Positions 60,458 to 60,563 of a stretch of DNA of 64,000 nucleotides are shown here, piece after piece. Position numbers and translations under genes: made by a program. Below the pieces are notes generated by a model that worked only from the letters and a program-made list of their open reading frames with translations, had not been told where the DNA came from and searched no databases. Within the stretch, counting starts at the first letter, position 1; each line of letters starts with the position of its first letter. The DNA is from Escherichia coli (GTDB lineage Bacteria; Pseudomonadota; Gammaproteobacteria; Enterobacterales; Enterobacteriaceae): assembly GCF_048403405.1 (NCBI RefSeq), contig NZ_CP183129.1. One strand, 5' to 3'.

Positions 60458-60563
60458 ACAATGCGGGCGAAAAATAAGGATGCCCCGTTAGGGGCGTTAG
60501 CTGAGTTTTTCGCGAAAAATTCAGCTAACGCTCTCTGTAATAGTCAAATCCAGGGGATTTACC

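Follow-up and report, generated by a model that had tools for sequence, protein, structure and literature searches.

A covariation-supported hairpin, probably a cis-acting RNA element, in the 5' leader of purHD in Escherichia coli and related enteric bacteria

The purHD promoter and its leader

The 64-kb stretch of Escherichia coli DNA analysed here (contig NZ_CP183129.1; referred to as the window) contains the purHD operon next to the ribosomal RNA operon rrnE, and a near-perfect palindrome lies between the two. As judged from comparative sequence analysis, this palindrome very probably reflects, at the DNA level, an RNA structure of the sense transcript that selection has maintained in the purHD leader. 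In RefSeq, identical DNA is flanked by the annotated 16S rRNA gene (rrsE) and by purH, and the records checked, that of MG1655 included, show no feature in the interval between these two genes. The purH coding sequence (60564–62153, + strand, 529 aa) is the first gene of purHD and is followed by purD (62165–63454), both being taken from the list of open reading frames (ORFs) and the RefSeq annotation.

The whole window was searched for the PurR consensus, tolerating up to three mismatches. The sole match, with two mismatches, was the operator GCGCAAACGTTTTCGT at 60441–60456, to which no strand applies. It is the same site as the purH-purD box listed by Cho et al. (2011) and is invariant across the Enterobacterales loci. 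Directly abutting it is the hexamer TACAAT (60457–60462, + strand), the putative −10 element of the purHD promoter, which is kept as TACAAT, TAAAAT or TAGAAT in all Enterobacterales loci and reads TAGAAT or TATAAT in Vibrio, Aeromonas and Pasteurellaceae. Judged by the position of this hexamer, transcription would start at about 60469, upstream of the hairpins described below, giving a predicted 5' untranslated region (UTR) of approximately 95 nt (60469–60563, + strand) that begins with about 13 unpaired, A-rich nucleotides. Aiba and Mizobuchi are said to have mapped, in 1989, the 5' end of the purHD mRNA upstream of two dyad symmetries; if so, the hairpins had presumably been seen by then, and the transcription start would lie upstream of them.

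The segment between the −10 hexamer and the putative start is a GC-rich discriminator, GCGGGCG (60463–60469), and comparable discriminators follow TAGAAT in Vibrio (GTGCGCC) and Aeromonas (ACGCGCC). GC-rich discriminators are typical of promoters inhibited by ppGpp/DksA. In addition, three copies of the word GCGAAAAAT / GAAAAATTCGCG are found near the promoter, namely upstream of the PurR box (60423–60436), at the putative start (60467–60475) and in the 3' arm of the hairpin (60511–60519); the first of these copies is conserved as GAAAAATTCGCGAGCG in Enterobacteriaceae.

The sequence around 60482–60531 reads ...aaggatGCCCCGTTAGGGGCGTTAGCTGAGTTTTTCGCGAAAAATTCAGCTAACGCtctctgtaatagtcaaatccaggggatttaccATG. 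A repeat search defined the palindrome as two 19-nt arms, 60494–60512 and 60513–60531, which are 95% complementary with a spacer of 0 nt. The 14-bp perfect palindrome TTTTTCGCGAAAAA (60506–60519) forms its centre, and the sole mismatch between the arms, G60505:T60520, becomes a G·U pair in the + strand RNA. An earlier note, made from the sequence alone, had described a near-perfect palindrome with just this wobble and this centre, and its coordinates and letters were confirmed. It exceeds by far what chance would produce: according to a scan of the whole window, it is the longest and most perfect closely spaced inverted repeat of the 64 kb. The runner-up, at 10692–10721, has 15-nt arms (AAGAAAGCCGGATGA/TCATCCGGCTTTTTT) and a T-run at its end, and looks like an ordinary intrinsic terminator.

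Folding of the leader, a check that the earlier note had proposed, gave a structure better than that of shuffled sequences (z = −2.86, with 1 of 200 shuffles equally good). Its core is a long stem-loop on the + strand (60495–60530), supported by folding and covariation, in which 60495–60510 pair with 60515–60530 to give a 16-bp stem with one G·U pair (60505/60520) and a CGCG loop. The minimum free energy structure and the centroid both contain a helix of 19–20 bp, in which the core is lengthened by four pairs between a G-run (60491–60494) and CUCU (60531–60534), that is G60494-C60531, G60493·U60532, G60492-C60533 and G60491·U60534. The predicted extended helix thus occupies 60491–60534 and is uninterrupted over 20 bp. 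The pair 60494–60531 has a probability of 0.83; the three pairs beneath it are split between two registers at 0.2–0.5 each.

A small hairpin, GCCCC-GUUA-GGGGC (GCCCCGTTAGGGGC, 60482–60495, + strand), carries a C-run on its 5' side and a G-run on its 3' side, and is seen both in the sequence and on folding, with an ensemble pairing probability of about 0.19 in E. coli. The earlier note had treated the two hairpins as simply following one another. Both are real, but G60494 and C60495 belong to both of them, so that the small hairpin and the long helix are mutually exclusive at their junction. Likewise, the palindrome had been placed in the purH leader, downstream of the PurR operator and about 35 bp upstream of the ATG; this placement holds, both the PurR box and the −10 hexamer being upstream of it, and 33 nt separate the 3' end of the long hairpin from the purH ATG (60564).

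Between the long hairpin and the ribosome-binding site (RBS) lies a 21-nt linker, CUCUCUGUAAUAGUCAAAUCC (60531–60551, + strand), recognised by its conservation. Its start, GCUCU, is invariant in all of the 35 species described below. The Shine-Dalgarno (SD) region (60546–60560, + strand) contains AGGGGA at 60552–60557, which is part of a weak local hairpin, AAAUCC-AGG-GGAUUU; the GGGG of the SD sequence (60553–60556) can alternatively pair with the CCCC of the small hairpin (60483–60486).

A transcription attenuator has to be weighed at this point. In such a scheme the hairpin would pause RNA polymerase, or control the loading of Rho on the C/U-rich linker, so that transcripts are cut short when purines are plentiful. 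The linker is indeed pyrimidine-rich and G-poor, with a CUCU that would be hidden or exposed by the junction, and Rho often acts on leaders of more than about 80 nt. However, the 3' flank of the palindrome, CUCUCUGUAAU, has no U-tract, and no + strand terminator was called within 60482–60540, in agreement with the earlier note, which had held that this is not a classic terminator. Furthermore, no 3' end associated with purH is among those tabulated by Adams et al. (2021) from Term-seq and Rho inhibition. An intrinsic terminator was rejected on these grounds. A leader peptide was rejected as well, given that the AUG at 60480 encodes M-P-R-stop in E. coli and that the short ORFs from it are not conserved. 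Taken as a whole, attenuation is very unlikely.

Some further identities were tried and set aside. A reading of GGGGCGUUAGCUGAG as tRNA-like has the wrong topology, and an attC-like site has the order of the GTT and AAC boxes inverted. A 5'-terminal stabilising hairpin of the ompA type needs to lie 0–4 nt from the end, whereas some 13 unpaired nucleotides come first here if transcription starts at about 60469. A terminator on the minus strand (GCCCCUAACGGGGC plus a U-rich tail) was discarded, its U-run not being conserved outside Escherichia. On that strand, 60495–60482 comprise the small hairpin followed by AUCCUUAUUUUU; this was called terminator-like and could halt antisense transcription toward rrnE.

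Conservation and covariation of the hairpin

The upstream regions of 80 purH loci, fetched with one genome per species, were read. Loss of the palindrome outside this strain, an outcome that the earlier note had considered, is not what was found: 5419 of 5426 complete E. coli genomes carry the element, and so do 35 species of Enterobacterales. In 5381 E. coli genomes, identity over the 63 nt that surround the palindrome is 99% or more; O157:H7 and a divergent strain show many differences upstream of the PurR box and only two transitions in the leader. The polymorphisms within Escherichia are C-to-U changes, namely C60495T, which turns a C-G pair into U·G, and C60511T, which lies in the CGCG loop of the folded model.

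What the 35 species keep is the base of the stem, CGUUA-NN-UGA / UCA-NN-UAACG-CUCU. They include members of the genera Escherichia, Citrobacter, Enterobacter, Kluyvera, Cedecea, Pantoea, Erwinia, Serratia, Yersinia, Rahnella and Brenneria. The interior or apex of the hairpin varies from 4 nt in E. coli to about 55 nt, so that whole hairpins measure 36–87 nt, and these variable interiors are unrelated in sequence yet self-paired, as in the 28-bp perfect helix of Yersinia thracica. The apical extensions of Erwiniaceae and Yersiniaceae contain recurrent CUCUAUAUAGAG-like palindromes, two of them in tandem in some species (Serratia). The order of the small hairpin, C-run first and G-run second, is kept in nearly all 35 species, with one clear double change (CCUC/GAGG, locus L014).

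The leader and its surroundings were compared column by column among 15 Enterobacteriaceae. Invariant columns make up 93% of the 5' arm and 80% of the 3' arm, 76% of the linker and 86% of the PurR box plus −10 hexamer, versus 17% of the six apical nucleotides, 10% of the first 19 leader nucleotides and 15.5% of the third codon positions of purH. On this comparison the arms are as strongly conserved as the PurR box, and sequence selection appears confined to the helix base and its flanks, the apex being free to change and grow. Because the arms are conserved in sequence and not only in pairing, the pattern suggests that something reads the helix base, and a sequence-specific reader may exist.

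A covariance model (R1) was built from 18 Enterobacteriaceae. It found the element on the + strand in 14 species on which it had not been trained (Erwiniaceae, Yersiniaceae and others), always just upstream of purH, and all 35 of its + strand matches are located between the PurR box and the purH ATG. R1 found no second site in the window and gave no match in the loci of Vibrionales, Aeromonadales, Pasteurellales, Photorhabdus, Edwardsiella, Budvicia and Rosenbergiella. Searches with blastn (11-nt words, E ≤ 10) returned a median of two places per E. coli genome (range 2–4). The second place is read as the palindrome matching its own other strand, and the element is presumed to be single-copy in E. 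coli. A repetitive palindromic element (REP/BIME, ERIC/IRU or MITE-like) was rejected, since such elements have many dispersed copies per genome, against this median of two blastn places and no second R1 site in the window. In Photorhabdus caribbeanensis (locus L040, about 443–560), the sequence gtgaccagggtgagtgcagccaac...gcaacttgaaagataacgggtat lies upstream of purH; it resembles what we take to be an ERIC/IRU repeat inserted in the promoter or leader.

The pairing itself was examined in alignment A2, which is gap-free, comprises 16 basal pairs and is anchored on the invariant flanks, so that its register was not picked for pairing. In A2, 88% of the cells are paired, and compensatory changes on both sides are seen at 10 of the 16 pairs; position 6 alone shows G-C, C-G, U-A and U·G. 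None of 500 column shuffles reached any of the five measures used, and sliding the 3' partner by 1–3 columns cut the pairing to 29–42%. T42, C43 and T44, at the start of the linker, are invariant in this alignment. The non-Watson-Crick cells are unevenly distributed, 31 of them being G:T and 8 being A:C. In 26 of 32 distinct sequences, the hairpin of the sense strand has the greater stability (Wilcoxon p = 0.001, with species that are not independent), and the covariance model reaches 89 bits on the + strand against 40 bits on the − strand. It is on account of the compensatory changes, the excess of G:T, the + strand stability and the model score that we read the palindrome as a sense-strand RNA helix. 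Thus, of the possibilities raised in the earlier note, that of an mRNA structure was borne out by conservation with compensatory changes and a sense-strand G·U bias. Compensatory changes and a constant context and strand, both seen here, are two of the marks of a conserved structured cis-regulatory RNA, the third being a demonstrated regulatory effect.

The other possibility, a DNA site for a dimeric regulator, fares differently by the same comparison. The palindrome would then be an operator at which a dimeric or oligomeric transcription factor, for example RbsR, forms a roadblock. Its near-perfect dyad symmetry and its constant spacing within the Enterobacteriaceae proper agree with this, and RbsR, the ribose repressor of the LacI family and a paralogue of PurR, has been reported to bind and repress the purHD promoter region (Shimada et al., 2013, as described by papers citing it). 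However, the conserved outer half-sites are between 16 and about 67 nt apart across families while the variable interior keeps its pairing throughout. No dimeric DNA-binding protein could accommodate such a spread, although a hairpin with an unconstrained apex could. The symmetry centre is the least conserved part, and the substitutions are strand-asymmetric, preserving RNA pairing, G·U included, and breaking DNA symmetry. Moreover, the centre TTCG-CGAA is the inverse of the LacI-family AAnCGnTT, and the PurR consensus is matched at 60441–60456 only and not in the palindrome. The RbsR core that was searched for matches nothing in the region. PurR and RbsR-type operators were rejected because the consensus searches miss the palindrome, and a DNA operator of any such kind is extremely unlikely.

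The earlier note had also pointed to the divergent rrnE P1 promoter. The palindrome, some 277 bp upstream of where P1 starts, is unlikely to matter for this promoter. Moreover, purH leaders of Vibrionales and Aeromonadales also carry a hairpin, at loci judged only by the absence of a contig break upstream of purH. The rrnE P1/P2 leader upstream of the 16S rRNA gave a match to the Rfam family 'Ysr197' (60069–60302, minus strand) of 118 bits, under the gathering score of 167. This match was also seen in Pantoea and Yersinia loci, and the family appears to model an rRNA operon leader.

Rfam 15 was scanned over 59800–60900 at E ≤ 10, and the only match on the element was a spurious miRNA hairpin (23.8 bits, gathering score 76). 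The scan of ten related loci likewise gave no match, the ZTP riboswitch (RF01750) included, and a full-text literature search turned up no account of any structure in the purH leader of enteric bacteria. The purH leader hairpin is thus uncatalogued in Rfam and is best regarded as a new, covariation-supported and putatively cis-acting structured 5' leader.

Outside the Enterobacterales, purH leaders of Vibrionales and Aeromonadales contain a different long hairpin in the equivalent place, after the PurR box and TAGAAT. It was located in Vibrionaceae (loci L042, L045–L052, L055–L060, L062, L064 and L070–L072) and in Aeromonadales (L049, L054, L056 and L057), at about 1300–1470 in each. Its base is GGNAUUUNNNAAAA / UUUUNNNAAAUAUCY (GGNAUUU-NNN-AAAA / UUUU-NNN-AAAUAUCY), the interior measures 10–64 nt, and the distance to the ATG is 32–47 nt in Vibrionaceae and Oceanisphaera and 87–89 nt in Aeromonas. 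In Vibrio, A·C and C·U mismatches are conserved. Over 17 basal pairs, 85% of the cells are paired, nine pairs show double changes and 0 of 500 shuffles did as well, figures that are inflated because the anchors were picked by best pairing. This hairpin matches no Rfam family and is not similar in sequence to that of the enteric bacteria.

The junction and possible effects on translation and mRNA fate

The small hairpin and the extension of the long helix compete for the same G-run. In E. coli, the local energies are −29.7 kcal/mol for the small hairpin plus a 15-bp core and −28.4 kcal/mol for the extended 20-bp helix, and the difference between the two junction states is within 2 kcal/mol in 27 of 34 species. 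In the RNAalifold consensus of 18 species, the C-run (60483–60486) pairs with the GGGG of the SD sequence (60553–60556). The ensemble probabilities in E. coli are 0.50 for this C-run:SD pairing, 0.33 for the local SD hairpin and 0.19 for the small hairpin, and in most species the C-run:SD state comes out ahead by about 5 kcal/mol when the ensembles are constrained. The G-run:CUCU extension is compatible with 21–26 of 27 distinct sequences, where it is almost invariant and not proven by covariation.

On this basis, the long helix could be a rigid structural platform that carries a bistable junction. In one state, the G-run would pair with the upstream C-run to form the small hairpin, and the SD sequence would not be held by the C-run. 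In the other state, the G-run would pair with CUCU to form the extended helix, and the C-run thus freed could pair with the SD sequence. The balance between the two would set how frequently ribosomes initiate on purH. The same double-stranded segment of about 20 bp may in addition influence the fate of the mRNA, either as an obstacle to 5'-end-dependent decay or as a substrate of the size suited to RNase III. Together, these effects would provide a layer of control on purHD that is independent of PurR and acts in cis, at the RNA level, after the start of transcription. Such a junction would explain the fixed C-then-G order of the small hairpin and the invariant CUCU. We put forward this combined action on translation and stability as our leading, though tentative, reading, in which the coupling to the SD sequence and the effects on translation and stability are inferred.

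Several observations weigh against such an interpretation. Mean RBS accessibility in an equilibrium model is 0.505 for native, 0.473 for shuffled and 0.500 for hairpin-deleted leaders, with z-scores scattered around 0; a direct gating of the RBS by the long hairpin was rejected for this reason. There is next to no variation in the extension, the small hairpin or the C-run:SD helix, so that covariation cannot choose among them, and their conserved near-isoenergy may reflect inheritance and not selection. Sequence conservation of the arms goes beyond what pairing needs, and structure alone gives no reason for an invariant helix base. The position of the transcription start is deduced from that of the −10 hexamer. 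No hairpin is present in Pasteurellaceae, Rosenbergiella, V. hannami and V. salinus, whose purH leaders measure about 37–65 nt; to judge by these genomes, some lineages can do without the hairpin, which occurs either complete or not at all. Lastly, there are negative results from published data: the Term-seq tables of Adams et al. (2021) show no premature 3' end for purH, two genome-wide studies report, in the parts consulted, no RNase III site in the purH leader (Gordon et al., 2017; Altuvia et al., 2018), and there is no peak for purH in the cross-linking and immunoprecipitation (CLIP-seq) data for CsrA (Potts et al., 2017). On the last count a CsrA site, for which AAGGAUG (60476–60482) and the GGA of the SD sequence had been considered, was rejected. 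The purH half-life is halved in a csrA mutant, but many genes share that effect (Potts et al., 2017).

The same properties of the helix may be read with cleavage as the primary function. RNase III would cut the helix, removing the part of the 5' leader that bears the C-run and leaving a monophosphorylated end, and cleavage would set the decay of purHD mRNA or activate its translation, as in the pnp, rnc and adhE leaders. The enzyme accommodates about 22 bp and in vivo recognises a base-pair pattern around the cut, according to those parts of the RNase III literature consulted. The 60491–60534 helix has the size needed, about two turns or 20–22 bp of near-continuous double-stranded RNA; across 33 distinct species sequences its length is never below 19 bp, with a median of 22 bp, insertions being tolerated and shortening not seen. 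The Vibrio-type hairpins, too, reach at least about 20 bp. Discrimination by base-pair pattern would explain the sequence conservation within the helix. Single-copy, gene-specific sites are, moreover, typical of leaders controlled by RNase III. Against cleavage stands the silence of the two genome-wide maps in the parts consulted, although PurR may keep purHD expression low under the conditions used. The one site there that bears the name of the gene, 'purH-rrsE' at 4207874 in Gordon et al. (2017), corresponds to about 60222 of the window and thus to the rrnE leader and not to the palindrome. Furthermore, the purH mRNA is long-lived rather than short-lived, with a half-life of 9.97 min in the wild type versus 4.6–6.5 min for purE, purL, purK, purN, purF and purM in one data set (Potts et al., 2017); a stable helix that hinders 5'-end-dependent decay could equally be at work. 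All in all, we consider RNase III processing as the primary function unlikely.

The invariance of the helix base may alternatively reflect an operator for a factor acting in trans, which could be PurH or PurD in an autogenous loop, a purine-sensing protein or a small RNA. It would read the base of the helix together with CUCU and the linker, and repress or activate translation. Pairing alone would not call for so much sequence invariance in the linker and in both arms at the helix base. The apex plays no part, as would befit a reader bound to the base, and the site is single-copy, as are autogenous operators. A precedent exists, in a related bacterium, in the stem of the Haemophilus sxy mRNA, which responds to purine pools, is not a riboswitch and for which purine-binding proteins have been proposed. 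However, no known factor offers itself as a candidate, CsrA has no CLIP peak here, and the literature search returned no mention of the purH leader or of the motif. In Vibrionales the hairpin base differs in sequence, so that any reader must have co-evolved. An operator of this kind is unlikely.

Finally, the hairpin might be an insulated passenger, that is, an old palindromic insertion with no regulatory role that is selected only to stay self-paired, as an unpaired insert of 40–90 nt would disturb the RBS or expose the leader to Rho or RNase E. That predicted RBS accessibility is the same when the hairpin is deleted in silico (0.500) as when it is present (0.505) fits such a history, as do the free growth and shrinkage of the apex and the several lineages with short, hairpin-less leaders and presumably normal purH regulation. 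On the other hand, 80–93% invariant arm positions against 15.5% for third codon positions would be unexpected, the GCUCU flank is kept in 35 species, and persistence in three orders and in all but a few of the E. coli genomes, with almost no polymorphism, would be improbable. We regard a mere passenger as distinctly unlikely.

The purHD operon is a textbook case in the best-studied of bacteria, and its control in E. coli has so far been described as repression by PurR alone, plus the report on RbsR. What is new is a leader RNA element that is conserved as strongly as the PurR operator, shows covariation in 35 species, is absent from Rfam and has a counterpart in Vibrionales and Aeromonadales. 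This points to a further, post-transcriptional level of control over the ZMP (AICAR)-consuming step, encoded by the same gene that sits behind a ZTP riboswitch in many other bacteria. If the element tunes translation or mRNA life, it would account for PurR-independent behaviour of purHD, would be relevant to the engineering of purine, histidine and AICAR production, in which the native regulatory region is routinely replaced, and would offer a simple, mutable model of a bistable junction borne by a helix. If it is inert, it would be a clean case of strong purifying selection on a 'passenger' RNA helix. More speculatively, and with very little probability, the purH hairpin and its counterpart in Vibrionales and Aeromonadales might form a new class of sensor-coupled riboregulators that replaces the ZTP riboswitch in gamma-proteobacteria without one, with the G-run junction tipped by a metabolite of the pathway (ZMP/ZTP, a folate or purine nucleotides), either directly or via an RNA-binding protein such as PurH. 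This would then be the missing receptor for the 'alarmone' ZTP of Salmonella and E. coli.

Comparison with known regulatory systems

In other bacterial phyla, the RNA regulator usually found ahead of purH is the ZTP riboswitch (pfl motif, RF01750). The enteric element resembles it in gene and position, being a structured 5' leader of purH, but matches it neither in sequence nor in structure. The E. coli hairpin is plain, with neither a pseudoknot nor conserved internal loops, so that no ligand pocket is apparent.

The PurR operator belongs to the same regulon and promoter region, and the outer 7 nt of the arms (CGTTAGC / GCTAACG) resemble PurR half-sites. In the purH palindrome, however, these half-sites face outwards, are at least 22 nt apart and enclose no correctly oriented central CpG core.

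The stem in the 5' region of the Haemophilus influenzae sxy mRNA is likewise a gamma-proteobacterial 5' UTR structure outside the known riboswitches, and it gates translation by purine nucleotide pools. It differs from the purH hairpin in that it belongs to another gene and is unrelated in sequence, and the purine response is known for sxy only.

From the RNase III-controlled leaders of pnp, rnc and adhE, the purH leader is set apart by the lack of a cleavage in the consulted parts of the genome-wide maps and by a long-lived mRNA in one data set. It shares with them a single-copy, gene-specific and near-perfect helix of about 20–22 bp in the 5' UTR, which is conserved in enteric bacteria and constrained in sequence as well as in pairing.

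Leader switches that sequester the SD sequence, such as RNA thermometers and the hairpins of E. coli pyrC and pyrD, differ from the purH leader in that its SD sequence lies outside the conserved hairpin, the long helix only carrying the junction, and in that equilibrium accessibility is neutral. In common with them, the purH leader has a short C-rich segment that may act as an anti-SD, a competing partner for it and an SD sequence 70 nt downstream, and the alternatives are near-equal in energy and act, if they do, in cis in the 5' UTR of a nucleotide-biosynthesis operon.

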